51,841 nt of DNA. Origin: an archaeon (GTDB lineage: Archaea > Nanobdellota > Nanobdellia > Pacearchaeales > GW2011-AR1). This document shows, one piece after another, positions 8,599 through 47,990 of this stretch; positions within the stretch are counted from its first letter, which is position 1; each line of letters begins with the position of its first letter. The stretch is from positions 1-51,841 of the forward strand of contig JBDRMT010000039.1 of assembly GCA_043811855.1 (NCBI GenBank). Reading direction: 5' to 3'. The notes below the pieces were generated by a model. That model worked only from the letters and a program-made list of their open reading frames with translations. It had not been told where the DNA came from and searched no databases. The position numbers were made by a program, and so were the translations under genes.

Positions 8599-8825
8599 TG
8601 ATTAGCAAGTTTTGACATATTTATAATATTTTGTGTGATTTTTGCACATAATTGTTACTAGTTATTTTTATCGTCGATAAAATGGATTTTAATATAGAAA
8701 ACTTTATAAAGGAAACTGCCTTGAAAATAGTAAGAATAGGTAGTTTCTGACCTAGAAAATTAATTAAAAATTGATGATAATTAGTCAGAACTATCAGATT
8801 TAAGAGTATGGGGAAAAGTGAATAA

Positions 8826-9761: not shown

Positions 9762-12700
9762 AAAAACAGATTATACTGCTAAGAATATTAAAGTTCTTCA
9801 AGGATTGGAGGCGGTAAGGCAGAGACCAAGTATGTATATAGGATCTACTGGCAAAGATGGTTTGCATCATTTAGTTTATGAAGTTGTTGATAATTCTATT
9901 GATGAGTGTTTAGCAGGTTTTTGTACTATTGTTGAGGTTACTATAAACAAGGATGGGAGTGTTACTGTTAAGGATAATGGAAGAGGTATTCCTGTTGATA
10001 TGCATTCTACTTATAAGAAATCTGCAGTTGAAGTTGCATTAACTAAATTGCATGCAGGAGGTAAGTTTGAAAAGAGTGCTTATCAAATTTCTGGTGGTTT
10101 GCATGGTGTAGGGGTTAGTGTTGTAAATGCATTATCAATAAAATTAAGTGTTAAAGTTTGTAGGGATGGAAAGATCCATCAACAAGAGTATAAGATTGGA
10201 AAACCAAATTATTCATTAAAAGTTGTTGGAAAATGTGGTAAGGATGAAACAGGAACTGAAATAACTTTTTATCCTGATAAAGATATTTTTTCAACTCTTG
10301 ATTTTGATTTTGCTGTTTTAAGAAAAAGAATACAAGAGATTGCATTTTTAAATCCTGTTAAAATTACATTAAAAGATGAGAAACATGGAAAAAAAGAAGT
10401 TTTTCATTATACAGGAGGATTAATTGAGTTTATTAATCATATAAATAAAAGTAAGGGAGTTTTGCATAAACCTATTTATTTTAAAAGACAGGAAAATTCT
10501 ACTATTGTTGAAGTTGCTCTTCAATATACAGATAGTTATAATGAAAATATTTTTGGATTTGTTAATACAATTAACACAACAGAAGGAGGAACTCATGTTT
10601 CTGGATTTAAAACTGCATTGACAAGAGCAATTAATGATTATGTTGCAAAAAAAGGATTATTAAAAAATGAAAAGTTGTCTGGAGATGATACTAGGGAAGG
10701 TTTAACTGCTATTATTAATATTAAGATGAGTGAACCTCAGTTTGAAGGGCAAACTAAAACTAAACTTGGTAATAGTGAGATGAAAGGGCTTGTAGATTCT
10801 TTAGTTTATGTTGCTTTTTCTGAGTTTTTAGAAGAAAATCCAAGTGTTTCAAATAAGATTGGACAAAAGGTTGTTGCTAGTGCAAAAGCTAGAAGTGCTG
10901 CTAGAAAGGCTAGAGACTTAGTTAGAAGGAAGAATGCAATGGGAGGGTTGTCTGGTTTGCCTGGTAAATTATCTGATTGTTCATCAAAGAAATTTGAAAG
11001 AACAGAACTTTATATTGTTGAGGGAGATTCAGCAGCTGGTTGTTTTTCAGGAGAGACTGAAGTAGTATTAGTTGATGGAAGGAGTATATCTTTTAAACAA
11101 CTTGTTAAAGAGGATAGTGAAGGAAAAGATAATTTTTGTTACACTATAAAAAATAATGGAACTATTGGAATTGGGAAAATAAAATATCCTAGAGTAACTA
11201 AAGAAAATACTGATGTAATTAAAATTGTTTTAGATAATAATAAGGAGATAATCTGTACACCTAATCATAAGTTTATGCTTAGGGATGGAAAATATAAAGA
11301 AGCAAAAGATTTAACAAAAGAAGATTCACTTATGCCTTTAAATAGAAAAATATCTAAGATTGGTGGAAGGATTACTATTGATGGTTATGAAATGGTATGG
11401 GATAATAAAAAGAAATTATGGATTTTTACACATTTATTAGCAGATGATTATAATTTGGAAAATGAGGTTTATGATAAAAAACAGGGAGATTCAAGGCATC
11501 ATATTAATTATAACAAACTTAATAATAATCCTAATAATATAGTTAGAATAAAGAGAGAAGATCATTTATTACATCATGCTGAGCACTTGGAAAAAGTATT
11601 ACATAGAGATGATGTTAAAGAAAAAGCCAGACAAGCTCATAAAACTCCGGAGTATAGAGAAAAAATTAAAAATTGGAGAAGGCAACCAGAAGTTAAGGAA
11701 ATGTTTTCTAATATTTCTAAAAATTTAATGAAAGATGAAAAATATAAAAAGAATTTAATGAAAAATTATATTAATTTTTATAATTCTGATGAAGAGTATA
11801 GAAAAGCTAATAATAAAAGATTAAATGATGCTCAGAAAAAATATTGGTCAGAATCTGAGAATATAAAAAAAGCATCTGAAAAAGTAAGAAAGTTTTTTGA
11901 GGAGAATCCTGATGCTAAGGAATATTTATCAAGTCTTGCAAAAGAGCAATGGAAAGATGAGGCTTTGATTATTTGGAGAAGGGAAAAAACTAGAGAGCAG
12001 TGGACTCCAGAGTTTAGAGAGAAACGGAAGATTGCTTATAATAAAACTTATTATAAAAAGACAATTAAATTAATGAAAGAAGTTGTAGAAGAGTTTGGAG
12101 ATTTAAATAATTTTGATGAGATTAGAATAAATAAAGGCGATAGAACTATTTTAAGTATGAAAACATTTTCTTCAAGGTTTTTTGAAGATAGTCCTTTAGA
12201 TATGTTAGAATCAGTTAAAAACTATAATCATAAAATAAAAAATATTTTTAAGTTAAATGAGAAGATTGATGTATATGATTTAGAGGTTGAAGATACTCAT
12301 AATTTTGCACTTGCATCAGGGGTTTTTGTTCATAATAGTTCAAAAATGGCAAGAGATAAAGAATTTCAAGCTATTTTACCTTTGAAAGGTAAGATTTTAA
12401 ATGTTGAAAAATCAAACCCAACTAAAGCCTTGAGTAGTGAGGAAATAATTAACTTAATTACTGCTATTGGAACTGGTGTTAAGGAAAATTTTGATTTAAA
12501 GAGGTTAAGATATAATAAAGTAATAATTATGACAGATGCAGATGTTGATGGTCAGCATATTATGACTTTGTTATTAACATTTTTTTATAGATATATTCCA
12601 GAATTAATTGAAAATGGAAATATTTATGTTGCTGTAAGTCCGTTGTTTAGAGTTAGAAAGAAAAAAGATTATTATGTTTATAGTGATGATGAGTTAAAAA

Positions 12701-12939
12701 GATTATTAGCAAAGTTAGGTGGTAAAGCTGATGTTCAAAGATTTAAAGGTTTAGGAGAGATGAATGCTCAGCAGTTATGGGATACTACTATGGATCCTAA
12801 GAAAAGAATTTTAAAGAAAATCCATATTGATGATGCTGTTATTGCTGATGAGACATTTACAATGTTAATGGGAGATGTGGTAGGTCCTAGAAGGAAGTTT
12901 ATTGAAACAAATGCTAATATTGCAGAGGTGGATATATGA
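9751..12939 (+). CDS. gyrB: DNA gyrase subunit B, interrupted by an intein
   Basis: It has GLEAVRQRPSMYIG, HHLVYEVVDNSIDE (GHKL ATPase), EGDSAAG|intein|SSKMARDKEFQAILPLKGKILNVEK (Toprim), IMTDADVDGQHI and KGLGEM. I start it at the ATG at 9751, preceded by ggaggaga. The track begins at a TTG at 9739. Confidence 0.95.
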   Translation: MVDKKTDYTAKNIKVLQGLEAVRQRPSMYIGSTGKDGLHHLVYEVVDNSIDECLAGFCTIVEVTINKDGSVTVKDNGRGIPVDMHSTYKKSAVEVALTKLHAGGKFEKSAYQISGGLHGVGVSVVNALSIKLSVKVCRDGKIHQQEYKIGKPNYSLKVVGKCGKDETGTEITFYPDKDIFSTLDFDFAVLRKRIQEIAFLNPVKITLKDEKHGKKEVFHYTGGLIEFINHINKSKGVLHKPIYFKRQENSTIVEVALQYTDSYNENIFGFVNTINTTEGGTHVSGFKTALTRAINDYVAKKGLLKNEKLSGDDTREGLTAIINIKMSEPQFEGQTKTKLGNSEMKGLVDSLVYVAFSEFLEENPSVSNKIGQKVVASAKARSAARKARDLVRRKNAMGGLSGLPGKLSDCSSKKFERTELYIVEGDSAAGCFSGETEVVLVDGRSISFKQLVKEDSEGKDNFCYTIKNNGTIGIGKIKYPRVTKENTDVIKIVLDNNKEIICTPNHKFMLRDGKYKEAKDLTKEDSLMPLNRKISKIGGRITIDGYEMVWDNKKKLWIFTHLLADDYNLENEVYDKKQGDSRHHINYNKLNNNPNNIVRIKREDHLLHHAEHLEKVLHRDDVKEKARQAHKTPEYREKIKNWRRQPEVKEMFSNISKNLMKDEKYKKNLMKNYINFYNSDEEYRKANNKRLNDAQKKYWSESENIKKASEKVRKFFEENPDAKEYLSSLAKEQWKDEALIIWRREKTREQWTPEFREKRKIAYNKTYYKKTIKLMKEVVEEFGDLNNFDEIRINKGDRTILSMKTFSSRFFEDSPLDMLESVKNYNHKIKNIFKLNEKIDVYDLEVEDTHNFALASGVFVHNSSKMARDKEFQAILPLKGKILNVEKSNPTKALSSEEIINLITAIGTGVKENFDLKRLRYNKVIIMTDADVDGQHIMTLLLTFFYRYIPELIENGNIYVAVSPLFRVRKKKDYYVYSDDELKRLLAKLGGKADVQRFKGLGEMNAQQLWDTTMDPKKRILKKIHIDDAVIADETFTMLMGDVVGPRRKFIETNANIAEVDI
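11041..12336 (+). mobile_element. GyrB intein (432 aa) with an HNH-type endonuclease domain
   Basis: It runs from Cys1 CFSGETEVV to the terminal VFVHN, followed by the +1 Ser. Block B is CTPNHKF. The HNH-like stretch is GDSRHHINYNKLNNNPNNIVRIKREDHLLHHAEH (about 11490-11590), followed by K/E/W-rich repeats. It is in frame with both exteins. Confidence 0.9.
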
Positions 12940-13328
12940 AAATACAATTAGCTTATAAAATGACTGGAGAAAATAGAGAAGAAGTAATTGAAATGCTTAA
13001 GGAGATAAAGAGTATTTTAGAAGAAAAAAGCAATGAAGTTTATGTTCCTGAGTTAAATCCAGATAGACCTAAAACTAAGAAAGAACTTTATCTAGATACA
13101 TTAAGAAAACTAGATAGTGCTGATGTTTTATTAGCTATTATTAAATCTGATGATAAAAGTGAAGGTATGTTAATGGAGATAGGTTATGCTATGGGAAAAG
13201 ATAAGAAAGTTGTTACAGCTATTTGGGATTGTGTTAAACAGACACACTTAAGAGAGTTAGCTAACCAGGTTATTGAGTTTAATAATATTGATAATTTATA
13301 TAAAAAATTAAAGGAGGTGGATATATAA
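12936..13328 (+). CDS. Nucleoside 2-deoxyribosyltransferase-like small protein
   Basis: 130 aa. SADVLLAIIKSDDKSEGMLMEIGYAMGKDKKV resembles the E-x-G-[YW]-A core of this fold. It has an ATGA overlap with the gyrB stop. Confidence 0.4.
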   Translation: MKIQLAYKMTGENREEVIEMLKEIKSILEEKSNEVYVPELNPDRPKTKKELYLDTLRKLDSADVLLAIIKSDDKSEGMLMEIGYAMGKDKKVVTAIWDCVKQTHLRELANQVIEFNNIDNLYKKLKEVDI

Positions 13329-14277: not shown

Positions 14278-17200
14278 ATGGTAGATGAAGAAGAACAAGA
14301 AACATTAGAAGAGGATAAAGAAGATGAAATAATTGAAGAAGAAAATGAAAATAATGGAGATTCTAATGGAAATGGAAATGGTAATGGAAAAGGAAATGGG
14401 GTTGAAATAGAACATTTAGAAAGAACAGATTTAAATTTAAAAGATTTAGATGAAAATAGAGTTTTAGGAAGTGAGATTACTCATGAAATGAAAAAAGCAT
14501 ATATTGATTATGCTATGAGTGTAATTGTTAGTCGTGCATTGCCTAGTGTTGAAGATGGATTAAAACCAGTCCATAGAAGAATATTATATGCAATGAAGGC
14601 TATGGGGTTGGAAAAGGGAATGACTAAGAAAAGTGCTAGAATTGTTGGAGATACAATGGGTAAGTTTCATCCTCATGGTGATATGGCTATTTATGATTCA
14701 ATGGTTAGAATGGCTCAACCTTTTTCATTAAGATATCCTTTGGTTCATGGACAGGGTAATTTTGGTTGTTTTACAGCAGATACAAAGGTTAAACTTGTTG
14801 ATGGAAGAAATTTATCTTTTATAGATTTGATAAAAGAGAATAAAGAAGGTAAAAGAAATTTTACTTATACTATTAATGCAGATAAAAGAGTTTGTATTGC
14901 TGAAATAAAAAATCCAAGAAAAACTAAGATTAATACAGAGATTATTAAGGTTATTTTAGATAATGGAGAGGAAATTAAGTGTACTCCCAATCATAAATTC
15001 ATGTTAAAGGAGGGTAGTTATAAAGAAGCTCAGTTTTTAAAATCTGGAAATTCTCTAATGCCTGCTTATTTTAGATTATCTACTAAAGAGGATAGTCATA
15101 AGGCAGTGGGATATAATATGGTGTTTCAACCTCAATCAGATTCATGGGATTTTACTCATATTTTATCTGATCAATGGAATCTTAATGATAATATCTATCA
15201 AAAATCAACAGGTAGAATTAGACATCATATAGATTTTAATAAATTAAATAATAATCCCGATAATATTAGGAGAATGAATTGGAAAGAGCATTGGCAAACT
15301 CATTATAATTTTACTTCTGAAAAACATAAAAATGATCCAGAATATAGAAAAAAACTAGCAAAAGGTAGGGAAGAATTTTGGAATAATAATGATAATAGAG
15401 AAGCTTATTCTAAAAGGATGTCAGAGAGAAATCTTAAAAATTGGAAAAAAAAGGATTATAGAGATAAGATGAAAATAACTTTAAGTGAAGTTAATAGAAA
15501 ATATTTAGAAGAACATCCTGAAAGAATTGAAGAGATTAGAAGAACAGCTTCAATTACTTTTAGTAAGATGTGGAAGATTTCTAAGTATAGAGATTTGTTT
15601 AATAAGAAGATTGTTGCAAGTAATAAAAGACGAAAAACTAATCTTACAGGAAAAAGGAAGTTTTTGAATATATGTAATTATATGAAAAGTAATAATCTTT
15701 TATTAACTAAAGAAAATTATGAGAAAGTGAGGGTTGAGGTTTTTGGAGGAAAGAATTTTACAACTTGGGATTTTGGATTAGAGAAATATTATGAAGATGA
15801 TAAAAATTTATTATTATGTGAAATAAACAAAAATCATAAGGTTGTAAGTATTGAATTTTTAAATGAATTTACAGATGTTTATGATTTAACAATTGATAAT
15901 AGTCATAATTTTGCTCTTGCTTCAGGAGTTTTTGTTCATAATTCAATGGATGGAGATAGTGCTGCAGCATCAAGATATACAGAAGCTAAACTTGCAAAAA
16001 TTTCTATTGAATTATTACAAGATATTGATAAAGAAACTGTTAAATTTGTTCCTAATTTTGATAATTCACTAAAAGAACCTGTTGTTTTGCCTGGAAAATT
16101 ACCAAATTTACTAATAAATGGAAGTTCAGGAATTGCAGTTGGTATGACTACAAATATTCCACCTCATAATTTAGTTGAAGTTTGTGATGCAATAACTGCT
16201 GTTATAAATAAGCCTAAAATTACAACAGATGAGTTAATGGATATAGTTAAAGGTCCTGATTTTCCTACTGGAGGAAAAATTGTTGCTGAAAATCTAAAAG
16301 ATCTTTATGAAAAAGGAAAGGCTGGTTTTGTTATTAGGGGAAAAGTTACAACAGAAGAAAAAAAGAATAAAGAATTAATTGTTATAACTGAAATTCCTTA
16401 TCAAGTTAATAAATCAGATTTAGTTAAGCAGATTGCTGAACTTGTTAGAGATAAGAAGCTTTCTGAGATTTCAGATCTTAGAGATGAAAGTAGTAAGGGA
16501 AATGTTAGAATTGTTATTGAGGTAAAAAAAGGAGCTAATAGTCAGTTTACAATAAATAGGTTATATAAATCCACTAAATTACAAACTAGATTTGATGCTG
16601 TTTTAGTTGCATTAGAAGCAGGAATTCCTAAAACTTTCACATTAAGAAAAATAATTGATTCTTATATTAAATATAGAAGAAGGATTATTAGAAAAAGAAC
16701 AGAGTTTGATTTAAGAAAAGCAGAAGATAGGTTGCATATTGTTGAGGGCTTGCTTATGGCACTAAAACAATTAGATGCTATTATTGAAACTATTAAAAAA
16801 AGCAGAACAACATTAGAAGCATCTGAAGCTTTGCAAAAGAAATTTAAACTTTCTAAAAAGCAGGCTGAAGCTATTTTAGAGATTACTTTGAAGCAACTAA
16901 CATCTTTAGAAAGAGAAAGACTGCAAAAAGAAGAAAAAGACTTAAAAGAATTAATTGAAAAGTTAAAAAAGATTTTAGCTGATGAAGGAGAGATTTTAAA
17001 AATAATTAAACTTGACTTAAGTGAGTTAAAAAGAAATTATGGAGATAATAGAAGAAGCACTATAATCAAGACTATTAAGGAAATTAATGAAAAAGATTTA
17101 GTTCAGAAGAAAGATGTCATTATAACAATTACAGAGAAAGGTTATATTAAAAGAATGCCATTTAGAGCTTATAATGAGCAAAAGAGAGGAGGAAGAGGAG

Positions 17201-18075
17201 TTATAGGAGCTGAGTTGACAAGTGAGGATTTTGTTAAAAAATTAATTAGTTGCTCAACTCATGATTATTTATTATTATTTACAGCTCGTGGAAGAGTATT
17301 TTGGTTAAAAGCATATAAAGTTCCTGAAACTCAGAGATATGGTAAAGGACAGGCAATTGTTAATCTGTTAAGTATTAAGGATGATAGTATTACTAATGTA
17401 ATTGCTGTTAAGGAGTTTAAAGATTATTTGTTTATGGCTACTAGGAAAGGACAGGTTAAGAAAATTAAGTTAGAATTGTTTTCTAAACCAAGAAATGCAG
17501 GTGTTAGAATAATTAATCTTCCAAATGATAATAGTGATGAAGTTGTTGGGATTAAAGAAGTTAAGGGTAAGCAAGAAGTAATGTTAATAAGTGAGAAAGG
17601 TCAGGCTATTAGATTTAATTCAGATGATGTTAGAGATATGGGAAGAGCAAGCTATGGTGTTACAGGAATTAAGTTAGGAAAGGACGATAAGGTTGTTAGT
17701 TTGGAAATTGTTGAAGATGTTAAAGATTCTATTTTAACAATTACTCAAAAAGGGTATGGTAAAAGAAGCAGGATTGAAGATTATAGATTAACAGGAAGAG
17801 CTGGTAAGGGAGTTATTAATCTTAAGATAGGAGAAAAAACAGGAAATGTTGTTGGAACTATTGATGTTATTGATAAAGAAAAGTTTGTTGTTTCAACTAA
17901 AAAAGGAATTGTTATAAAAACAAGTGTTAAAGATATTAGGATTATGGGAAGAGCAACATCTGGTGTTAGAATAATTAAGCTTCAGCAAGGAGATAGAGTA
18001 AGTGCTATTTCAAAGTTAATGGAAGATAAAGAAGTTGTTGAGAATGGTGATGGTGGTGAGGAAAATGGAAATTGA
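14278..18075 (+). CDS. gyrA: DNA gyrase subunit A, interrupted by an intein; acidic/NG-repeat N-terminal extension
   Basis: It has [42 protein letters not shown]|intein|[17 protein letters not shown] (catalytic Tyr motif intact) and C-terminal beta-pinwheel repeats (GGRGV, RAGKGV). Confidence 0.95.
14767..15942 (+). mobile_element. GyrA intein (392 aa) with an HNH-type endonuclease domain, paralogous to the GyrB intein
   Basis: It runs from [14 protein letters not shown] to [23 protein letters not shown], followed by the +1 Ser. Block B is CTPNHKF. The HNH-like stretch is [31 protein letters not shown] (about 15220-15303). Confidence 0.9.
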
Positions 18076-36223: not shown

Positions 36224-36976
36224 ATGAGAAAGAGGAAGGTTAAGGCACAAGTTACAATTATAATTATAGTTGCAATAGTTATAGTGGGTGTGATTTTAGC
36301 AATTTATGCAATTAATATAAAAACATCTCCAAAATTTAATAGTTATGATGATACTCAGATAAATCAAATTAATAAACAAATATATTATTGTATTGAACAA
36401 AGGGCAATTGATGTGATTTACTTGCTAGGACTTCAAGGAGGCTATGTAAATATTCCAGATGATTATGTAACAACAGACTTATCTGATGTTGCATATGGAT
36501 TAAAAGATAATCAAAATAAATTACCAACAGTTTTAGAAGTTGAAAATGAGATTTCAGGTTATATAGATTTTTCAAGCACATATTGTTTAGATAAAGATTT
36601 TCTTGAAGAAACATATGATATTCAAACAGATTTTAAAGATTCAGAAACAAGAGTTAAAATAAAAGACAATTCTGTTGAAATTGAGGTTTATATGCCTGTT
36701 GTTCTTACAAAAGGTGAAGCAACTTATGAGTTTGATGAAAAGTATAATTATGAAATACCAATAAGACTTGGAAAAATAATAAATATTGCAAATCAAATTA
36801 TTGAGAAACAAAAACAAAGTGAAGATAATATTCCTTTAACTTACTTGTCAAATATTGAAACTAAAATTATTTTTGATTATATTGATAGTGAAACAATTGT
36901 ATATATTATACATGATGAAGAATCAAAAGTAGATGAAACAATTTATAATTTTATGTTTGCTTTAGAAATTGGATAA
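36224..36976 (+). CDS. P5: divergent member of the class-III signal peptide family (lacks the CxxC motif)
   Basis: 250 aa. It has MRKRKVKAQVTIIIIVAIVIVGVILA, YCIE, GLQGGYVNIP and YCLDK, with no CxxC. The IS is inserted directly after its stop codon. Confidence 0.7.
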   Translation: MRKRKVKAQVTIIIIVAIVIVGVILAIYAINIKTSPKFNSYDDTQINQINKQIYYCIEQRAIDVIYLLGLQGGYVNIPDDYVTTDLSDVAYGLKDNQNKLPTVLEVENEISGYIDFSSTYCLDKDFLEETYDIQTDFKDSETRVKIKDNSVEIEVYMPVVLTKGEATYEFDEKYNYEIPIRLGKIINIANQIIEKQKQSEDNIPLTYLSNIETKIIFDYIDSETIVYIIHDEESKVDETIYNFMFALEIG

Positions 36977-37014
36977 TGAAGATTAGTGTCCTGGTTCAGG
37001 ACATATGTCACTAG

Positions 37015-37716
37015 CTAGAATAGTTTGTGAAAAGCGAAATAAACCTCTGAAGGATTTTTATTGTTTAGACTTGTATGAGGTCTAAAATGATTATATCTCA
37101 TCCTGAATAGTTCAGGATCATTATTACAGAAAGGCATTTCATTAATCATTGTTTGGAATAATCTTTCCACTTTACCAGAAGTTGTAGGACTATGAATTGC
37201 ACTTCTGATATGTTTAATTCCTCTTCTTCTACACCACCTATCAAACTTACTATGTTTACTTTTTAATCCGAAAACCGCACCATTATCTGTTAATATTTCT
37301 CGCGGTTTTCCATGAATTTTTATTATTTTATCAAACACATTAGTTATTATCTCAGTAGATATTTTATTAAGAGGAGTCATAGCAAGAGAGTATCTCGAGC
37401 AATCATCAATAATTGAAAGAACATATTTATCCTTGACTTTCTGGTCGCTTGTATCTGCTTGCCATAATGAATTGGGATGTTCTCTCTGCCAACGAATATA
37501 TTTTATTCTCTTCTTCTTATTTGGATTTGAATTAGATAGATTATTTTTTATTAATATCCTCTTTATTGTAGAAACTGATACTTCATTTATAATTGAATTA
37601 ATCTTTTCTGCTCCCCATCCAGTCTTACTCCTTAGATGGATTATCTTATTCTCTATATCTCCGGTAATTTTAGTAGAATATTTTTTGGCTTTCTTGAAGA
37701 ATCCATCAAATCCCAT
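37015..37716 (-). CDS. IS transposase OrfB (integrase core / rve DDE domain)
   Basis: 233 aa. It has the DDE-type signatures WQADTS, LTDNGAVF and HSPTTSGKVERLFQTM. It lies in the -1 frame relative to OrfA, with a 64-nt overlap. Confidence 0.85.
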   Translation of the reverse strand: MGFDGFFKKAKKYSTKITGDIENKIIHLRSKTGWGAEKINSIINEVSVSTIKRILIKNNLSNSNPNKKKRIKYIRWQREHPNSLWQADTSDQKVKDKYVLSIIDDCSRYSLAMTPLNKISTEIITNVFDKIIKIHGKPREILTDNGAVFGLKSKHSKFDRWCRRRGIKHIRSAIHSPTTSGKVERLFQTMINEMPFCNNDPELFRMRYNHFRPHTSLNNKNPSEVYFAFHKLF

Positions 37717-37868: not shown

Positions 37869-38003
37869 TAATAAAAAAGAAGCTAATTAACCAACTAGAT
37901 TTAGGTTATCTAACATAATAATTAGACTGGTGACATATGTCATGGTCTTACACAGATAATGAAGATTAGTTAAATTTATAAAGTTGTTAAGTTCTTTAAG
38001 ATT

Positions 38004-38303
38004 ATGACAGGAAATTATGATTCAAGAGAAGTACAAGATATAGTAAGAAGTTTAACTACAATGCCTGGTTATCAAGGATATTGGTTTGATGAAAGAATGG
38101 GATTTAGAAAAGGTCCTTGTGATGTTAAAGGAGAGATTCCTAATATGCCAGCAAAACTTGCAGATGGTGAAGCATTAATTGGTTTAAGAGAACCAATTTC
38201 AAGACTTCCTCAACGTCCTATAATCTTATTGGAAAGAGAGGGTGATGGTTGGAAATTTAAAAAACATGTTGCAACAATAGAAGGTACTCATTCTAGAGGT
38301 TAA
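38004..38303 (+). CDS. Hypothetical protein
   Basis: 99-aa ORF with no recognisable motif and no competing ORF. Confidence 0.4.
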   Translation: MTGNYDSREVQDIVRSLTTMPGYQGYWFDERMGFRKGPCDVKGEIPNMPAKLADGEALIGLREPISRLPQRPIILLEREGDGWKFKKHVATIEGTHSRG

Positions 38304-38363: not shown

Positions 38364-39221
38364 ATGGAAATTTGTGCAATATCAGATATTCATCATCCTT
38401 ATAATGATGATAATTTAAACAGAGCAATTGAACAGATGCATAGATGCGATGTTGTAGTAATAGCTGGAGATGTATCTTCATACCCTCTAAAATATAAAAG
38501 AGTTTTAGATAGGTTTAAAGGAGTTGATGCAGTAAAACTTGCAGTTTTAGGAAATCATGATGTTTATTGTTCTGATGGAGAAGATTCATATGAAAGAATT
38601 GGAGAACTTGAAAAAATATGTGATTCTTGTGGTTTTCATCTTTTAGATAAATCTCCTGTTGTTGTTGGAGATGTTGGATTTGTTGGAAATATGGGGTGGT
38701 ATGATTATCAATTTGCACAAAAAGATAGTGATGAAGTTATTTTTGGAGTAAGGGGAAGTAGAATATATGAGATAAGAGTTAGAGATATGGATGATTTTGA
38801 TTTTTCACATAAACATTATTTTTTTAGAGGTTCAGATTCTAGAGATTATTCTGCAATCTGGAATGATATAAGATTTGTCAAATGGAGGTTTAGTGATAGA
38901 GAGTTTTTAGATACTCAAGTTCAAAGACTTAAACAAGATATTGAAGTAGTATCACCTAAGGTTGACAAACTAGTATATGTAAGTCACCATGTTCCTATTA
39001 AGGAATTTATATATGAAAAACCTGAAGATATACAATGGAGTGTTTTTAATGCTTATCAAGGAAGTCCTGAACTTAGCAAAGCTGCATTTTCAGATCTTAA
39101 ATTAAGAGCTGTTATTTGTGGGCATAGTCATATTCCAAATTATGTAAGAATTAATAATGTTGATTGTCATGATGTAAGCAATAGTTTTGGAAAACTTCAA
39201 CCAGTTTTTCTTTCTGTTTAA
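38364..39221 (+). CDS. Calcineurin-like metallophosphoesterase
   Basis: 285 aa. It has ISDIHHP, VVIAGDV, LGNHD, VSHHVP and CGHSH metal-ligand motifs in canonical order. Confidence 0.8.
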   Translation: MEICAISDIHHPYNDDNLNRAIEQMHRCDVVVIAGDVSSYPLKYKRVLDRFKGVDAVKLAVLGNHDVYCSDGEDSYERIGELEKICDSCGFHLLDKSPVVVGDVGFVGNMGWYDYQFAQKDSDEVIFGVRGSRIYEIRVRDMDDFDFSHKHYFFRGSDSRDYSAIWNDIRFVKWRFSDREFLDTQVQRLKQDIEVVSPKVDKLVYVSHHVPIKEFIYEKPEDIQWSVFNAYQGSPELSKAAFSDLKLRAVICGHSHIPNYVRINNVDCHDVSNSFGKLQPVFLSV

Positions 39222-42200
39222 TAAACAATTCTCCCATTTTCCATATTCATTATAGCATTTAAAACACCTTGATAAACCTCTTCTCTCCATTTTTCAGGAG
39301 TTGCAGTTATATCTAGATTAGGATTTTTCAAGTGTGCAGGAGGAAGGCCTTTAGACCTTAAAACATAGTCCATTAAAAGTCTGCTTGTTCTTCCATTTCC
39401 ATCTTCAAAAGGATGGATAGATACATATTCTCTTTGCAAGTCTGCAGCAACATTTGTTATTTCTCTAACTGTTTTTGCATTTTCTATAAAAGGATTATAT
39501 TTTTCAACTAAATTATCCATCATTTCTGGAACTTTGTTAGCAGTAGGATAAGAAACAACCCCTGTATAGTATTTATCAGGATTTTCTTTAATATAATTAA
39601 TAGATTTAATATAATCAGCATTCGTCCTAAGTTCTGGATCTGAATAAATTCTACTAATGAGATAGTCTATCATTTCTGGTGAATCAGTTAATTTTTTTCC
39701 AGAAACATCAAGATAAGGATTAGCTGCGTATCTTAAAAAATTTTCTTGATCATATATAAGTAGAGGACCAAGTTGAAACTCAGCTCCTGGTATTGTATCT
39801 GTTATCCTGAATTGGGTTTGTTCTAAAGGAACTAAATCTAATTGCCTATTTACTAGACGACCTTTTAATGTTTTACTTGGAATTCTTCTTCCAATTTCTT
39901 TAATTAAATCCACAGAAATTTTTCCATCATTAGTTTTTGTAACTTCTTCAATATAATCATGAGCACGTTTCCATTCCATCCAATCATCAATACCATAAGC
40001 TAGTTCTGGTTGTCCTCTAAGTTCGATAGGTATTACATAACCATCAGGACCTACCATCATATCTCTATAAAGGAAATAATGATCTGAATCTATAAATCCT
40101 CTTGCAGCAGACTGATCATCTGTTGGATAGTTTTTTCCTGCGTCAAAGAATTTTTGTTCATCTGCTTGGAGACGCTCTCTAGCGGTACTAGTAAGTTCAT
40201 CAGAGGTTTTAGCTGATTGTTCTTCTATAACATCATTTAAGATTTTTTGTCCTAAGTTTGCTTGTGAGTGTGTTAAAGCAATATCTAAAGCACTAACTTC
40301 AAATAATTCATTAGTTGATTGAGGATTAATTGAAACTTTAATTTCATTTCCATCTAGATTATATTTAAATATTCCATCTTCTCCTATCTTACCATCAAAT
40401 TTACTTGCTAAAGTATCTAGGTCTTTTTGTGTCCTAACAAAAAATTTATTAGTGCTTGTAAGATCACCAAAAACCTTTACACCTAATTTATTACTTCCTA
40501 AAGAATCAAGAACTCCTTTTGTAAATCCTCCTGCTACTAATAATCCCATTCCTAATCCAATTGTTTTTGCAAGTTCTGGGTCTACATTAGCTAATCCTTC
40601 TAAAGAATAAGATACTCCAGCATCAACAATCACTTCTTTTAAATAAGCACTAGCTAATTCTCTTGCTGTAATTCCAGACCATGCTTTTGCAGTTGTTTTT
40701 AGTCCTGTTGTTAGACCTAAACTTAATCCTTCTGTTGTAGCTGAAGCTCCTCTTGCACCAAAACCAGCACCAACTAAATTTAAAGGGTTTAGAAATATGT
40801 CTGCAGCAAACAAAGAAGCATATTCTGCTGTATTTAATTTTATTTCTTTTCCTAATCTATCTCCTATTTCAACAAAATCTCCTCCTGTCATAAATGAACG
40901 AAGAGTGGGATCTCCATGTTCTTTACTTGTTGCATAATCAATTAACCCCATTATTCTTACTGTATCATCAAATCTTCTTTGGAGTTCAGGATTATCTCTG
41001 CTATAACCTTTTTCCCCTAATAAACTTAAAATTATTTCTTGTCTTTGTGAAGGATTTGTATTTCTTAATTTATCATTATTAAAAATATCACTTAAGTCAT
41101 TAGTTGGAACTAAATCATCTAAACCTGCTGAACTATATATTCCTAAGAATCTATCAAAATAATTTGATTCATAATATTCATTTAAATTTATTCCATTATC
41201 AACTAATTGTTGCATATGCTTTGAACCAAGACCTATTTTTCCTGCCCTAGCTATCTGGCTTTCAGCATCTGTTAAATAGGAATCAAAGTTTGTAACCTTA
41301 TATCCAGTAGTATATGGAGAAGCAATAGCAGCTAAACTATCAAAAAATCCTTGAGATCTACTTCTTGCTCCTAAATCTGTTGTCAGAGCTCCAAGGTTTT
41401 GAAAAACTCTTTCATCTTCTTGATTTGCAAGATTACTTATTGTTGATAGTTGTGTAGTTGTAAAATCTTTGTAAACTTTTTTAATACCTACATCATCACT
41501 ATAAAGAGAAAGGGATTTATCAAGTGTTTTTTTACTTTCTGCAAATTTTCCATCTAAAAACAAAGCTCTTGCTTTTTGAACATAAGCTTCTTTAACATAT
41601 GCATCATTAATGTTTTCTCCTCTGCTATTAAGGTCAATTATTCTTTGAGCTAATCTTTCAGCTTCAATATTATCTCCTAAACTAATCATTGTGGAAATTT
41701 GTTTTGATTCTAATTCACCAGGTTGATATATTCCTGTTGATTCAGCTTTTTTAAAATCTTCTCTTGCTTCTTGTGCAAGTTTTACATTTTCATTATAATT
41801 TTCTGGAATTAAAACAGAATAACTAATCTCTGAAGAACTGCTTTTTTGAATGCTTTTTAGAGCAGAAACAGAACTGTCTTTTTTTAAGAACTTTAAATCA
41901 TAAGGTAATTGAGAATCTATTGGTTTCCATGTTTTTCCTTGGTCATCTGAATAAGCTCTTACTTCACCATTGCTTCCGAGCTTTAGTTGATAAGTGTTTG
42001 ATATGTCAGGTTGTAGATTTTCTAAATTAGGATTAGAACTAAATCCTCCTCTTTGTGTAACTGTTATTGTTCCAATCATTGAATCTTTTGAGTCTAGTAC
42101 TTTTTGAGTTATTAATTTTCCAGCTTGATCATAAAATTTACCTAAAACTTCTTTGTATTCTTGATTATCTGCTTTAGATTCAATCTCAGTTATTAATGAT

Positions 42201-43993
42201 TTAACTTCACTTAAGGTATCTGTTGCTTTTTTACCTTCAAAAGGATTAAGATTTGCCTGCGCATTAAGTATATTAAATTTTGTTTCATACCATTCTTTGC
42301 TTCCTTTTTTTCCTTCTGCTTCTAATGTTTTTAATCTAGCTTCACTAAACTTTATTTGACCTTTTAATACATTTTTTATTTGATTACTTACTATTAAATC
42401 TGGAACTGAAGCTGATTTTGTTAATAAGTTTGTATCTAGTGAAAATGAAAGTACTTTTTGATTTTCCTTATTAAATAAGTTTAAGGTAAGATCATCTCCT
42501 GAAAAACTTGTTTTTATAAATCCTTCTTCTTTTAATCCCTTATTGTTTATATGTGAAAAACCAAACTCATGCTCTTTAACTGATTCTTTTGATTTATGAA
42601 AAAAAGCTTCATTATTTTTTATAGATATTTTGTAAGAATCATCTCCAAATGTAACATCTCCTTTTTTTACATCAAAGAAATTATCTTTTCTATCAAATTC
42701 AACATAAGTATCATCTTCCTGCCCTCTATAAAAAAGACTATTAGAATTAAAATCATCAGCATTAACTTTTCCATTTAATAAGACTTGAGAGTCATCTATG
42801 AAAACTAAATTTTTTATTCCTTCTGATTTTAATTGGTCATATTTTGTTTTATCACCAAAGATAACTGTCATTGGTCCGTTAATAGAATAAAAATTTCCTG
42901 CTTCTATAGAAAAAACAATATTTTCAAAAGTTGCTGATGAAATATCTCCATTTTTATTAAGAGTTAAAGATACTTTTCCATTGCTTTTTAATCCTTTTTT
43001 TAAATAAGATTCAGGATCTTCTCCTAACCAGAATTTGTTAGTTGTTTTTCCATCAATAGAAAAGTCATTAATATTTTCAAGTTCAAGAGTTCCTTTAGTG
43101 AAATCAATTTCAACTTTTCCTCCTTTATTAACTACTACGGTATATATTTTTCCATTATTTTTAATAGGATATCTATCTCCTTCTTTTGAGGTGAATTTTA
43201 CATAAGTTATTTCTCCATTTTCATCAAGTCTTAGGGCTGCTTGTTCAATTTTTCTTAGTTCTCTTCCTCCATTTTGTTTAAAAGAATCAATATAATCAGA
43301 GTTTAATACTACCATATCATTTACATGAGAAATTTCTAATGTTTTTCCTTGAACAAGTACTATTTCATTACCTCTAAGTTTTACTGGATAGATATTTCCC
43401 CTATTATAGGGGTCTGAATTTACAATCTTTAATTTTCCATCAGGACTTTCCTTTATAGAGTAAGGTTCAGTTATAACAAGAAATTCTTTTCCATTTTCTT
43501 CTATAGTTATTTTATTTTTTTCAGCAGTTCCCTTAAGAGTTTCAGCAGAAGGAATTTTTATTGTGAATTCCCTTTGATTTTGTTTTGCATATTTTGCAAG
43601 ATTATCAAGTCCTTTTTGTGATAATAATTCTGAATAATAAGCAGCTTTATCTGAACTTGCTCTGTGAGAACTAATTACAATTCTAAGGCCAGATTTAACT
43701 TGATTATGGTTTGTATAAGAAGATATTTTTGAAACACCAGTTTTAAGCTCTTCATTAAAAGATTCTATCTCTGTATTAATTACTTTAATTTCTTCAGGAG
43801 TTAGGTCTGTTGTATCAGATAAAAGGTATTCTAATAAAGGGTCTGTTTGTTCTCCAATAGAAGTAACTTTTCCACTTGAATCAACTTTATATTCTAGTGC
43901 TGATGTTAGTTGAATAACTATTAGTACAAGAAAAATTGCTATTATACTAAGTGTAAACTTTGATTTTTTATTAAAATTTAAACCTCTTTTCAT
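39218..43993 (-). CDS. Giant (1591 aa) membrane-anchored/secreted protein with a C-terminal Fic (AMPylase-type) domain
   Basis: It has an N-terminal anchor FTLSIIAIFLVLIVIQLTSA and a long beta-rich, motif-poor region compositionally like the L proteins. TPR-like helical and Gly/Ala-rich hydrophobic segments follow. The canonical Fic motif HPFEDGNGRTSR is encoded at 39380-39415. Confidence 0.85.
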   Translation of the reverse strand: MKRGLNFNKKSKFTLSIIAIFLVLIVIQLTSALEYKVDSSGKVTSIGEQTDPLLEYLLSDTTDLTPEEIKVINTEIESFNEELKTGVSKISSYTNHNQVKSGLRIVISSHRASSDKAAYYSELLSQKGLDNLAKYAKQNQREFTIKIPSAETLKGTAEKNKITIEENGKEFLVITEPYSIKESPDGKLKIVNSDPYNRGNIYPVKLRGNEIVLVQGKTLEISHVNDMVVLNSDYIDSFKQNGGRELRKIEQAALRLDENGEITYVKFTSKEGDRYPIKNNGKIYTVVVNKGGKVEIDFTKGTLELENINDFSIDGKTTNKFWLGEDPESYLKKGLKSNGKVSLTLNKNGDISSATFENIVFSIEAGNFYSINGPMTVIFGDKTKYDQLKSEGIKNLVFIDDSQVLLNGKVNADDFNSNSLFYRGQEDDTYVEFDRKDNFFDVKKGDVTFGDDSYKISIKNNEAFFHKSKESVKEHEFGFSHINNKGLKEEGFIKTSFSGDDLTLNLFNKENQKVLSFSLDTNLLTKSASVPDLIVSNQIKNVLKGQIKFSEARLKTLEAEGKKGSKEWYETKFNILNAQANLNPFEGKKATDTLSEVKSLITEIESKADNQEYKEVLGKFYDQAGKLITQKVLDSKDSMIGTITVTQRGGFSSNPNLENLQPDISNTYQLKLGSNGEVRAYSDDQGKTWKPIDSQLPYDLKFLKKDSSVSALKSIQKSSSSEISYSVLIPENYNENVKLAQEAREDFKKAESTGIYQPGELESKQISTMISLGDNIEAERLAQRIIDLNSRGENINDAYVKEAYVQKARALFLDGKFAESKKTLDKSLSLYSDDVGIKKVYKDFTTTQLSTISNLANQEDERVFQNLGALTTDLGARSRSQGFFDSLAAIASPYTTGYKVTNFDSYLTDAESQIARAGKIGLGSKHMQQLVDNGINLNEYYESNYFDRFLGIYSSAGLDDLVPTNDLSDIFNNDKLRNTNPSQRQEIILSLLGEKGYSRDNPELQRRFDDTVRIMGLIDYATSKEHGDPTLRSFMTGGDFVEIGDRLGKEIKLNTAEYASLFAADIFLNPLNLVGAGFGARGASATTEGLSLGLTTGLKTTAKAWSGITARELASAYLKEVIVDAGVSYSLEGLANVDPELAKTIGLGMGLLVAGGFTKGVLDSLGSNKLGVKVFGDLTSTNKFFVRTQKDLDTLASKFDGKIGEDGIFKYNLDGNEIKVSINPQSTNELFEVSALDIALTHSQANLGQKILNDVIEEQSAKTSDELTSTARERLQADEQKFFDAGKNYPTDDQSAARGFIDSDHYFLYRDMMVGPDGYVIPIELRGQPELAYGIDDWMEWKRAHDYIEEVTKTNDGKISVDLIKEIGRRIPSKTLKGRLVNRQLDLVPLEQTQFRITDTIPGAEFQLGPLLIYDQENFLRYAANPYLDVSGKKLTDSPEMIDYLISRIYSDPELRTNADYIKSINYIKENPDKYYTGVVSYPTANKVPEMMDNLVEKYNPFIENAKTVREITNVAADLQREYVSIHPFEDGNGRTSRLLMDYVLRSKGLPPAHLKNPNLDITATPEKWREEVYQGVLNAIMNMENGRIVY

Positions 43994-44027: not shown

Positions 44028-44666
44028 TTATTTCATATAATTATCTTCCCAGATTCTTATTTGATTTTCATTAAATTTTATTTGTTTTTTATTTGATTTT
44101 GTCTTAGGGAATTTATATCTTAAGTAAATTCCAGCTATGATTCCAATTGCAATTCCAGAAAGATGAGCAATTGAACCTATGTTTGTGTCTCCTAAAGCTC
44201 CTAAAGTTCTTAATACATCTGCTATTACCCAGATAATTGATGCAATAAACATTGGCATCATTAATCCAAATGCCCATACCATAATAAAAGGTGCCATGAT
44301 TGTTAAAGCACCCATAATCCCATATATTGCTCCACTTGCACCTAAGCTAGAGGTGTAGAAATTTACAGATATTATATTTGCTATTATTCCTGAAGCTAGG
44401 AAAATAATTAAGAATTTGTTAGAGCCTACTTTTTTTTCAAGAAGGATTCCAAAAAACAAAAGTGCAAATAAATTAAAAAATAAGTGAGTTACTGAACCAT
44501 GTAAAAAAATTGATGATAGAAATCTCCAGTATTCAAAATTTATTAGTGCTTTTTCATTTAATATAAGAGTATCTGTAAAACTAGGAATTATTAATTGAAG
44601 TAAGAAAAATAAAACTATTATTCCTGCTAACCATAGAAAGTAAAGTTTCATTTTATTTTTTTTCAT
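44028..44666 (-). CDS. Rhomboid-family intramembrane serine protease
   Basis: 212 aa. It has YWRFLSSIFLHGSVTHLFFNLFAL, the catalytic GASGAIYG and AHLSGIAIG. It ends 34 nt upstream of the Fic gene start on the same strand. Confidence 0.85.
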   Translation of the reverse strand: MKKNKMKLYFLWLAGIIVLFFLLQLIIPSFTDTLILNEKALINFEYWRFLSSIFLHGSVTHLFFNLFALLFFGILLEKKVGSNKFLIIFLASGIIANIISVNFYTSSLGASGAIYGIMGALTIMAPFIMVWAFGLMMPMFIASIIWVIADVLRTLGALGDTNIGSIAHLSGIAIGIIAGIYLRYKFPKTKSNKKQIKFNENQIRIWEDNYMK

Positions 44667-46740: not shown

Positions 46741-46812
46741 GGCGGATGTAATTCAGTGGCAGAATACTCGGTTGTGGTCCGAGCAGCGAGGGTTCGATTC
46801 CCTCCTTCCGCT
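46741..46812 (+). tRNA. tRNA-His (anticodon GTG) with a genome-encoded G-1; no encoded CCA
   Basis: Hand-folded. The layout is G-1, acceptor GCGGATG/CTTCCGC (one T:T mismatch), D arm attc-agtggca-gaat, anticodon arm ctcgg-ttGTGgt-ccgag, variable loop cagc, T arm gaggg-ttcgatt-ccctc and discriminator T. Confidence 0.8.
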
Positions 46813-46838
46813 TCAAAATAAAACAAAGGAATAATAAA

Positions 46839-47990
46839 ATGGATACAGTAAAAGGATTTAAAGATGTAGAAAATGCATCAAAAAGAATTGCAATTAGAAA
46901 CATAATTGAAAATGTGTTTAAATTATATGGTTTTATCCCAGTTGAGACTCCTGTTATAGAATATGAAAAGTTTGTTAAAGGAGAAAATGCAAGTGATGAA
47001 GCTGTTTCAGATATTTTTAAATTAAAAGATAGGGGAGATAGAAAGCTGGCTTTAAGATATGAATTTACATTTCAATTGAAAAGACTTGCTAAAAATAAGA
47101 AACTTCCTTACAAGGTTTATAATATGGGTCCTGTTTTTAGAGATGAGCCTGTTACAGGAAATAGGTGGAGGCAGTTTACTCAATGTGATGCAGATATTAT
47201 TGGAGTAAATTTAAAAGATGTTGGAGAGATATTAAAATTAACTTCTGAAATTTTAAAGAAGTTGGGAGTTAAGTTTACAATTAATATTAATAATAGGAAA
47301 TTATTAAATGAAATATTAGATAGTATTGGGGTTAAGGAAAAAAATAGATCTGAAGTTATTAAAGAGATTGATAAGATAGATAGATTAAGTGAATCAGAAG
47401 TTAAGAGGAATTTAAAAAAATACAATGCTGATGGAATTATTTCTATTTTTAAGAAACCTGAAAAATATTTTGAAAAGTTTAAAAATTATGAAGATATTAA
47501 AGAGTTGAAAAAGATTTGTAATTTTTATAAGATTAAAACTGAGTTTTCTCCTTTTTTAGCTAGAGGTTTAAGTTATTATAACTGGATTGTTTTTGAAATT
47601 AAGGGTGAGATGAAAGAATCAATTACTGCCGGAGGTAGTTATTTGGTTAATGGGGTTCAGGCAAGTGGTATTTCATTTGGTTTAGATAGGTTAGAATTAA
47701 TTTCTAAGATTGGAGATGATATTAAAAAGGTTTTAGTAATAAGTTTAGGGCAGGATAAAAAAGCTGTTGAGTTTGCAGATAATATTAGAAGTAATAATAT
47801 TCCTTGCGAAGTATTTTATGGAAAACCTGGAAAAGCTTTAGATTATGCTAATTCAAATAATATTCCGCTAGTTGTTTTTGTTGGTGATGAAGAAGTTAAA
47901 AAGAAAAAGTTTAAACTTAAAAATATGAATTCTGGAAAAGAAGAATCAGTTAGCGAGAAAGGTTTAATAGAGATTTTAAAGGTTGTTTGA
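46839..47990 (+). CDS. hisS: Histidyl-tRNA synthetase (class IIa)
   Basis: 383 aa. It has GFKD, LRYEFTFQ, the motif 2 region GPVFRDEPVTGNRWRQFTQCDADIIG and a C-terminal anticodon-binding fold, VLVISLGQD...IPLVVFVGDEE. Confidence 0.85.
   Translation: MDTVKGFKDVENASKRIAIRNIIENVFKLYGFIPVETPVIEYEKFVKGENASDEAVSDIFKLKDRGDRKLALRYEFTFQLKRLAKNKKLPYKVYNMGPVFRDEPVTGNRWRQFTQCDADIIGVNLKDVGEILKLTSEILKKLGVKFTININNRKLLNEILDSIGVKEKNRSEVIKEIDKIDRLSESEVKRNLKKYNADGIISIFKKPEKYFEKFKNYEDIKELKKICNFYKIKTEFSPFLARGLSYYNWIVFEIKGEMKESITAGGSYLVNGVQASGISFGLDRLELISKIGDDIKKVLVISLGQDKKAVEFADNIRSNNIPCEVFYGKPGKALDYANSNNIPLVVFVGDEEVKKKKFKLKNMNSGKEESVSEKGLIEILKVV

Follow-up and report, generated by a model that had tools for sequence, protein, structure and literature searches.

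Gene content of the locus

The window, by which the whole analysed stretch of 51,841 nucleotides (nt) of archaeal DNA is meant, carries on its minus strand a giant gene whose product of 1591 amino acids (aa) joins a predicted Sec signal peptide and a long scaffold to a C-terminal Fic domain, and which is met tail to tail by a gene for a calcineurin-like metallophosphoesterase (Metallophos). The open reading frame (ORF) at 39218-43993 had been called correctly in the original prediction, and the peptides quoted there are all present in the translation. The gene, its parts from the N-terminus onwards and its convergent neighbour are the following:

39218..43993, minus strand: giant gene for a putative scaffold-toxin fusion, 1591 aa, predicted secreted, ATG start (ORF list and translation)
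43898..43993, minus strand: predicted cleavable Sec signal peptide, aa 1-32 (MKRGLNFNKKSK / FTLSIIAIFLVLIVIQL / TSA↓L), from hydrophobicity and its n-h-c layout
42314..43897, minus strand: beta-rich N-terminal scaffold, aa 33-560, conserved in the family, no Pfam match
40820..42313, minus strand: helical TPR-like scaffold, aa 561-1058, weak Pfam matches to TPR and BNR, helices in the AlphaFold2 (AF2) model
40499..40819, minus strand: Gly/Ala-rich amphipathic-hydrophobic segment, aa 1059-1165 (..NPLNLVGAGFGARGAS.. / ..GLGMGLLVAGGF..), conserved more strongly than any other block in the family
40112..40498, minus strand: small alpha/beta pre-cassette domain (conserved ..FFV..DL.. / L.EV) and variable linker, aa 1166-1294, with an AF2 predicted local distance difference test (pLDDT) score of 70-84 at aa 1160-1230
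39221..40111, minus strand: exchangeable C-terminal Fic cassette, aa 1295-1591, with the Pfam core at aa 1446-1545 (nt 39359-39658) and the catalytic motif at nt 39380-39415
38364..39221, plus strand: calcineurin-like metallophosphoesterase, 285 aa, no signal peptide, Pfam Metallophos E=1.8e-12, convergent to the giant gene with a TTAA stop-codon overlap

Identity of the Fic cassette

The Fic active-site motif named in the original prediction, HxFx(D/E)GNGRxxR, was found exactly where it had been placed (HPFEDGNGRTSR, aa 1527-1538, nt 39380-39415), and the Pfam profile PF02661 matched aa 1446-1545 at E=1.7e-11, its 45.3 bits being well above the gathering cutoff of 24. The motif is complete, which is its AMPylation-competent form, and an alignment of 121 sequences shows no variation at its H, D, G, N, G, R and R. 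Sequence matches in the PDB were obtained to the Fic protein BT_2513 (1.5e-10), AnkX (1e-7) and FICD (1e-6). The AlphaFold model of the last 321 aa had a mean pLDDT of 60, with 83-91 in the core, and the top Foldseek matches were FICD, BT_2513, VbhT and SoFic, at a probability of 1.00 and with a best E of 5.7e-5 for FICD; the template modelling score of the Fic fold reached only about 0.4, the flanks being poorly modelled. The cassette has a GC content of 0.321 versus 0.287 for the scaffold, in a window of 27-28%.

Exchange of C-terminal cassettes across the scaffold family

An exhaustive phmmer search with aa 31-1230 against 1.84 billion representatives returned a scaffold family of 28 proteins at E<=1e-3. 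The word-indexed search gave a single relative, P0002, with 53% identity over aa 31-1273 and an unrelated stretch of about 350 aa at the end. In the following, P0001 is the window protein, L001 is the locus of P0002, and L007 is the locus in which the scaffold P0123 sits. The tails of the family members fall into these kinds:

Fic tails: the window protein (P0001) and P0129
PRTase-CE-like tails (weak Pfam matches; common motif VIFDDxSYSGxQL): P0002, P0125, P0140
Unrecognised tails: P0126, P0127, P0136, P0142, P0144, P0147, P0148
N-terminal half of a HINT domain, about 60 aa, all ending at the same position: P0123, P0124, P0128, P0130, P0134, P0139

Relatedness of the scaffolds did not predict relatedness of the tails, as seen in four pairs:

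P0001 and P0002: 58% identity in the scaffold core, no hit between the tails
P0001 and P0129: 36% identity in the scaffold core, 46% between the tails
P0125 and P0127: 45% identity in the scaffold core, no hit between the tails
P0002 and P0125: 38% identity in the scaffold core, 34% between the tails

Thus, the closest scaffold (P0002) bears an unrelated tail, while the homologous Fic tail of P0129, whose 46% identity extends over about 300 aa, rides on a scaffold of 36% identity. The locus L001 shows synteny to the window (HisRS, TGT, rhomboid, the giant gene, then TruB and pilin-like genes). DNA similarity between the two is about 70-75% over the flanks and the scaffold, is lost at about position 40258 of the window and is back at TruB, so that it is missing exactly across the cassette and the neighbour gene. 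Relative to P0002, the recombination breakpoint falls at about aa 1245-1273 (nt about 40175-40258), and protein similarity stops at aa 1273. Since the synteny with L001 is preserved and the DNA similarity is interrupted only over the cassette region, the C-terminal cassette has been exchanged by recombination. It is by such exchange of C-terminal toxin domains that polymorphic toxins are defined (Zhang et al., 2012, PMC3482391). The earlier description of the protein as a delivery scaffold with a C-terminal warhead of the polymorphic-toxin type was supported by the swapped tails, the scaffold/tail incongruence, the relatives with a pretoxin-HINT (PT-HINT) domain and the neighbour genes that co-vary with the cassette.

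The family is rare. A scaffold profile found no relative in 185,579 GTDB species representatives; a scan of JGI metagenomes for further members gave only P0002-like and P0125-like locus copies, and IMG/VR contained no match to the scaffold, the Metallophos or the Fic cassette. The TGT gene adjoining the locus is at most 72% identical to genes of metagenome-assembled genomes labelled Candidatus Woesearchaeota, Pacearchaeota or Nanoarchaeota, and the neighbour genes point to a Woesearchaeota-like DPANN archaeon. No scaffold or Metallophos gene was present near TGT at the syntenic sites of related DPANN genomes (L010-L020). The giant gene belongs to the accessory genes of a lineage that has been sampled poorly.

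Cassette-specific neighbours and candidate immunity

The catalytic motifs of the Metallophos are intact (DIH8, GD35, GNHD63 and GHSH253); its best NCBIfam match, TIGR03729, remained under the cutoff of that model. The other Fic-bearing member, P0129, is likewise met by a convergent Metallophos gene (283 aa) with a matching 4-nt overlap and a small ORF beyond it. The pairing of Fic with Metallophos therefore held in 2/2 cases, and 0 non-Fic members had a Metallophos beside them among the loci checked. The other cassette types were accompanied by other genes:

PRTase-like cassette (P0002, P0125, P0140): convergent ADP-ribosylglycohydrolase (ARH), 3/3
P0126 tail: convergent IU-nucleoside hydrolase
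P0127 tail: convergent 154-aa protein of unrecognised family
Split-HINT cassette of L007: convergent GDSL hydrolase
Split-HINT cassette of the P0124 locus: convergent ADP-ribosylglycohydrolase

None of the neighbours with readable sequence (0) had a signal peptide. From this gene context, the cassette-specific neighbours are best taken as putative immunity proteins that would reverse or degrade the toxin product, and the Metallophos as a candidate deAMPylase-type antidote to the Fic cassette. A cassette-specific Metallophos without a signal peptide implies that the producer needs self-protection, a need that agrees with competition among related cells no less than with manipulation of a host. 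The ARH best matched the Tri1 and DraG models below their cutoffs (Tri1 73.6 versus 490). The hydrolase neighbours (ARH, IU-nucleoside hydrolase, GDSL) were located at L001 14870-15844, L004 4403-5344, L021 5193-6179, L022 6688-7593 and L007 13068-13673, and the ARH is partnered with a PRTase-like domain, not with an ADP-ribosyltransferase.

Taken together, the giant gene is likely to be a polymorphic toxin of a DPANN archaeon, having a Fic AMP-transferase as its warhead and the Metallophos as a candidate antidote. A number of observations weigh against this interpretation. Neither PT-HINT nor any other recognised pre-toxin domain occurs in the window protein, and orphan cassettes are missing from the window. 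Confidence in the C-terminal model is only moderate (pLDDT 60), and the Gly-rich block falls under the transmembrane hydrophobicity threshold, with an AF2 pLDDT of 30-40. Classical systems have a co-directional immunity gene, whereas the candidate here is convergent, and its linkage to Fic is based on n=2, there being only two Fic-bearing members. Moreover, the nearest free-standing Fic homologs, P0003 and P0004, have no Metallophos neighbour; the Metallophos has no sequence relative in the PDB; and a literature search found neither a calcineurin-like phosphoesterase acting as a deAMPylase nor any Fic-metallophosphoesterase pair.

The original prediction had raised a host-directed role, in which an episymbiont would display a constitutively active Fic enzyme to modify host proteins; the phosphoesterase would then be a temporal regulator, an eraser or a gene unrelated to self-protection. 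Such a role would agree with the lack of a canonical (S/T)xxxE(G/N) motif in the cassette, with the position of the gene next to clustered genes for pilin-like and large secreted proteins, and with its DPANN source, as many DPANN members are symbionts (PMC6393860). The best likeness among curated subfamilies is also to effector Fics, namely XopAC/AvrAC (NF041381, E=1.5e-14) and AnkX (NF043028, E=5e-10) in NCBIfam, and the AnkX alignment runs through the C-terminus. However, only the Fic core aligns to either model, and the scores are far under the family cutoffs (53.6 versus 450 and 38.2 versus 1400, respectively). Signal-peptide-less, cassette-specific neighbours at every cassette type checked are a signature of self-protection, and hypervariable tails with orphan cassettes are typical of competition among related strains (PMC3482391). 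A primarily host-directed effector is thus considered unlikely. The two readings are compatible, since the host archaeon may share the target with its symbiont.

Question of auto-inhibition

Engel et al. are said to have assigned, in 2012, Fic proteins with the inhibitory helix (S/T)xxxE(G/N) in the same chain to class II or class III, the helix lying N-terminal or C-terminal to the core, respectively. A regular-expression search for the strict motif [ST]xxxE[GN] gave no match in aa 1270-1591. The earlier by-eye observation to this effect was confirmed, although the result is uninformative alone, as shuffled tails give zero matches in 78% of cases. The whole protein contained 5 matches versus 2.4 expected, which is no significant excess (P=0.09). 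The inhibitory-like matches in the scaffold lie at least 400 aa upstream, and TLELEN, SATFEN and SYSLEG are kept in P0002, which has no Fic domain. On sequence grounds, the absence of the canonical cis inhibitor is established.

A degenerate cis helix was considered as a candidate: MAFFT put AHDYIEEV (ARKYVED in P0129) beneath the class II motif with a conserved acidic pair (YIEE/YVED), whereas hhalign against the class II homologs aligned the catalytic core only, leaving the homology of the helix unsupported. The MAFFT placement is kept as a caveat. If YIEE/YVED were such a helix, the protein could be a non-toxic, auto-regulated surface enzyme similar to FICD, whose structures were the top Foldseek matches, and would reversibly AMPylate the secreted or surface proteins of its own cell. 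This is most improbable, given that ATP is scarce outside cells and that a housekeeping role is at odds with a cassette that is replaced by an unrelated enzyme in the closest relative, with the absence of the gene from related genomes and with the rarity of the family.

Inhibition in trans was considered for a small ORF next to the Metallophos gene:

38004..38303, plus strand: 99-aa ORF from the ORF list, co-oriented with and upstream of Metallophos, ending ..KHVATIEGTHSRG; possible module part, status uncertain

Its GC content of 0.343 is the highest of the region, and its C-terminus (..VATIEGTHSRG) resembles a Fic inhibitory helix. It had no homolog among 5.8 billion proteins, matched nothing in Pfam or NCBIfam and lacks the strict inhibitory motif. 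A 91-aa gene occupies its position beside P0129, the two having been compared by position and size only. The Fic domain might then be a class I-type toxin held inactive by this ORF (..VATIEG..) as VbhT is by VbhA, with the Metallophos as an accessory or a passenger. Consistent with this are the small ORF at the same position in both Fic loci, the absence of a cis motif and the resemblance of ATIEG to the xAIEG core of the inhibitory helices of class II homologs. On the other hand, the strict motif is missed, with V in place of S/T at position -4, an IEG tripeptide within 99 residues is not rare by chance, no homolog or family supports the ORF, and the hydrolase pairing of the other cassette types would be left unexplained. 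We regard trans-inhibition as quite improbable, and the polymorphic toxin with the Metallophos as its candidate antidote is retained as the preferred interpretation.

Topology and architecture of the scaffold

The only strongly hydrophobic segment of the protein is aa 9-37 (Kyte-Doolittle 2.66), with a basic n-region, an h-region and a c-region of small residues (LTSA↓LEY). By hydrophobicity and inspection, the n-h-c layout with small residues at -1/-3 was present in 21/21 family members examined. The N-terminus thus looks like a cleavable Sec signal peptide, with cleavage predicted from this layout, better than like an anchor, and the earlier description of the protein as membrane-anchored was not upheld, the same layout being found in all relatives. 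The window protein has no strong internal transmembrane segment; the Gly/Ala-rich stretches at aa 1059-1079 and 1144-1163 have Kyte-Doolittle values of 1.28-1.42, which is under the usual transmembrane threshold. An extracytoplasmic Fic domain, as had been proposed, is favoured by the signal peptide, by the lack of strong internal transmembrane segments and by the signal peptides that the split-HINT cassettes of relatives carry on their own. From the latter it follows that the C-terminus of the scaffold is extracytoplasmic, because the HINT halves can meet only outside the cell.

Short family fragments (P0132-P0148) match the aa 33-560 region only, and this beta-rich part is a candidate for adhesion or receptor binding. 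In the AlphaFold model of aa 740-1295 (mean pLDDT 69), confident helical repeats were followed by the Gly-rich block, which was modelled poorly, and by a small alpha/beta domain; AF2 gave helices at aa 740-870 and 900-1060 with a pLDDT of 85-95. The helices claimed in the original prediction are therefore present in the model, and their assignment to TPR was backed weakly (Pfam E about 0.04; Foldseek generic TPR only, E>=0.02). No known translocation domain could be made out in the scaffold core, Foldseek giving generic TPR proteins only, at the same E values. There was no detectable relation of the scaffold to RHS, filamentous haemagglutinin, LXG or any Pfam family. The scaffold has one canonical Asp-box, SDDQGKTW (consensus SxDxGxTW), at aa 681-690 (nt 41924-41953), which is kept in P0002 as SSDGGETW.

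The Gly/Ala-rich segment noted earlier was confirmed, with 40% G+A over 40 aa at aa 1075 in the most conserved part of the family; the invariant columns are N1072, G1075, A1076, G1077, A1080 and G1150. This block is the best candidate for a membrane insertion or translocation element.

Split pretoxin-HINT in relatives

The ORF abutting the scaffold P0123 in L007 matched positions 58-136 of the 137 of the PT-HINT profile PF07591 (E=3e-9). A second, orphan cassette upstream in L007 combines a nearly identical HINT half with a different tail, the PF07591 matches in this locus having E=3e-9 and 2e-10, and the P0124 locus (JGI 3300072015) has the same layout of PT-HINT and orphan cassette. The abutting ORFs in the split-HINT loci are composed of a signal peptide of their own, the C-terminal HINT half and a tail of about 330 aa. 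Six divergent scaffolds end at one point inside HINT (..GGCFL..KYYxIEYEVI, then stop); in L007 the split-HINT arrangement lies at 8001-13111 and 6049-7212. This arrangement suggests that attachment of toxins to the scaffold, or their cleavage from it, may follow secretion. In the window, the Fic cassette is fused directly behind the variable linker. PT-HINT and orphan cassettes are hallmarks of polymorphic toxins, and they hold for the family, not for the window gene. The 1591-aa protein contains 0 cysteines; there are 0-3 in several relatives, one of them being the HINT catalytic cysteine in the members that end in HINT.

Proposed mode of action

According to the preferred reading of the locus as a polymorphic toxin system, Sec would export the toxin, and the signal peptide would probably be cleaved. 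About 1250 residues would make up a lineage-specific delivery scaffold with the beta-rich part, the TPR-like helices, the Gly-zipper-like hydrophobic block and the pre-cassette domain, and a pilin-like partner of about 250 aa would probably present or anchor it on the cell surface. For crossing the target membrane, the Gly-rich block is the best candidate. Fic requires a nucleotide donor and must therefore act inside the neighbouring cell, where the cassette would most likely AMPylate (or otherwise NMPylate) an essential protein. The Metallophos, as the putative cognate immunity protein, would hydrolyse the phosphodiester joining the nucleotide to the target, in parallel with the ARH of the PRTase-like cassette. 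What the sequences show are the domain identities, the exchange of cassettes, the co-variation of the neighbours and the secretion signals; toxicity, AMPylation, entry into a target cell, the immunity role and chemistry of the phosphoesterase and the role of the partner are proposed from them.

A more far-reaching version would see here a platform of the DPANN lineage's own, comprising an unrecognised scaffold fold, a pilin-like presenter, a Gly-zipper translocation block, mainly enzymatic immunity in which every warhead would have a signal-peptide-less hydrolase to reverse or destroy its product, with the Metallophos as a new class of Fic-countering deAMPylase, and sister scaffolds loaded with alternative warheads outside the cell via the split pretoxin-HINT, the halves of which would be exported separately and reassemble there. 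As a whole, this version is tentative and we consider it rather doubtful.

Comparison with known systems

The family resembles the bacterial polymorphic toxins (CdiA, Rhs, MafB, LXG/WXG) in the N-terminal secretion signal, the long conserved scaffold, the recombining unrelated C-terminal toxins and the adjacent cassette-specific gene, as well as in the PT-HINT and orphan cassettes of the relatives. Zhang et al. (2012, PMC3482391) list Tox-Doc/Fic among the polymorphic-toxin domains and state that such systems are rare in archaea. In contrast to the bacterial systems, the candidate immunities are convergent and are enzymes instead of small binding proteins, and the HINT of the relatives is split between two separately secreted proteins. 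The candidate immunity protein of the window is a phosphoesterase, unlike the listed Tox-Doc immunities Imm23, Imm-SUKH and Imm13 (PMC3482391).

An antidote enzyme that reverses the modification made by the toxin would be shared with Tre1-Tri1 and Imm-ARG, in which an ADP-ribosyltransferase toxin is paired with an ADP-ribosylhydrolase; Imm-ARG was the only known enzymatic immunity protein according to Zhang et al. (2012, PMC3482391). Unlike in Tre1-Tri1, the ARH found here accompanies a PRTase-like domain, and the partner of the Fic cassette is a calcineurin-like phosphoesterase.

With the class I Fic pairs (VbhT-VbhA, FicT-FicA, Fic-1-AntF), the locus has in common a canonical-motif Fic and a separately encoded partner. 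Class I Fic toxins are growth-arresting AMP-transferases, and GyrB and ParE are known targets (PMC7479194, PMC13327609). Those pairs consist of a small cytoplasmic toxin and a small antitoxin encoded in the same direction, which inserts an inhibitory glutamate, whereas the Fic domain of the window is the tail of a 1591-aa predicted exported protein and has no antitoxin with the strict motif.

The effector Fics and their erasers (AnkX-Lem3, DrrA-SidD, XopAC/AvrAC, VopS, IbpA) are similar in that their Fic domain lacks a cis inhibitory motif and acts after delivery into another cell, which for the window protein is the predicted outcome. In Legionella, writer and eraser are encoded by neighbouring genes. 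Effector Fics are delivered into eukaryotic cells by type III or type IV secretion systems, and their erasers have other folds. The sequence similarity to AnkX reaches beyond the Fic motif; AnkX itself has an atypical motif and transfers phosphocholine.

The fold of RNase Z is that of a metallo-beta-lactamase and differs from that of the window Metallophos. RNase Z, a metal-dependent phosphodiesterase, was recently reported as a deAMPylase (PMC12663964); it counteracts SelO, not Fic, and is not an immunity protein.

Leaving aside the work of Makarova et al. (2019) on archaeal polymorphic toxins, the scaffold family, the DPANN setting, the convergent enzymatic immunity candidates including the Fic-linked metallophosphoesterase, and the split pretoxin-HINT appear to be undescribed. 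Bacteria rely heavily on polymorphic toxins in their warfare, while competition and host attack in DPANN are largely unexplained; the locus offers a concrete candidate weapon in which the scaffold is defined, the warhead is a canonical Fic domain and an antidote can be proposed. Should the Metallophos reverse the Fic modification, it would represent a new deAMPylase class and the second type of enzymatic immunity after the ADP-ribosylhydrolases. The family pairs its toxin tails with four different hydrolase classes, and its split-HINT members suggest a mechanism of post-translational warhead swapping. The rule of a cassette plus its neighbour could be used for finding new toxin domains together with their reversing enzymes.

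Pilin-like partners and other features of the window

The window also encodes the large secreted L proteins, to which the N-terminal part of about 1300 aa had been likened (L-A to L-G). This likeness did not stand: BLASTP gave nothing below E=1, and hhalign of the family profile versus five L proteins reached a best probability of 6.6%. The only link is organisational and consists in the paralogous partner genes for pilin-like proteins of about 250 aa. Several paralogous proteins of about 250-280 aa occur in the window with N-termini such as MKKGQTTIFIII, which look like class III (pilin-type) signal peptides of archaea. In front of each large secreted L ORF, and often overlapping it, stands a gene for a paralogous pilin-like protein of about 260-280 aa, a two-gene module that recurs in the window (pilin-like/L pairs at 34389-35231/32416-34392, 31508-32362/28804-31533, 22947-23729/23730-25628 and 22029-22811/20424-21992).

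The partner gene of the giant gene and the insertion sequence (IS) element adjoining it are as follows:

36224..36976, plus strand: pilin-like partner, 250 aa, N-terminus of the class III signal-peptide type, 59% identity to a 246-aa gene of L001 and 37% to a 259-aa gene of L007
36988..37954, minus strand: IS element with an rve/DDE transposase at 37015-37716 (Pfam rve E=2.6e-15), between the partner gene and the Metallophos operon

In L001, L007, L022, L023 and the P0124 locus, the orthologous partner gene is directly upstream of the scaffold start or overlaps it. The window partner is displaced, being downstream of the toxin gene and inverted relative to L001 (nucleotide match at L001 9265-9982), next to the IS element. 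The latter has 18-nt terminal inverted repeats (36997-37014 and 37927-37944), is flanked by an exact 16-nt direct repeat, GATAATGAAGATTAGT, at 36972-36987 and 37955-37970, and is absent from the syntenic locus L001.

A rhomboid protease gene (44028-44666) lies on the same strand 35 nt upstream of the toxin gene and might have a part in processing; a rhomboid gene is near the scaffold gene in L001 and L003 too, and not in L007, L022 and L023. The sole tRNA of the window, tRNA-His (GTG) at 46741-46814, is located 25 nt upstream of the histidyl-tRNA synthetase gene (46839-47990) on the same strand. Two very long ORFs, 9739-12939 (1066 aa, opening with a GyrB-like N-terminus) and 14278-18075 (1265 aa), have in common a segment of about 400-460 aa with 35% identity, which possibly represents related inteins inserted in both genes.

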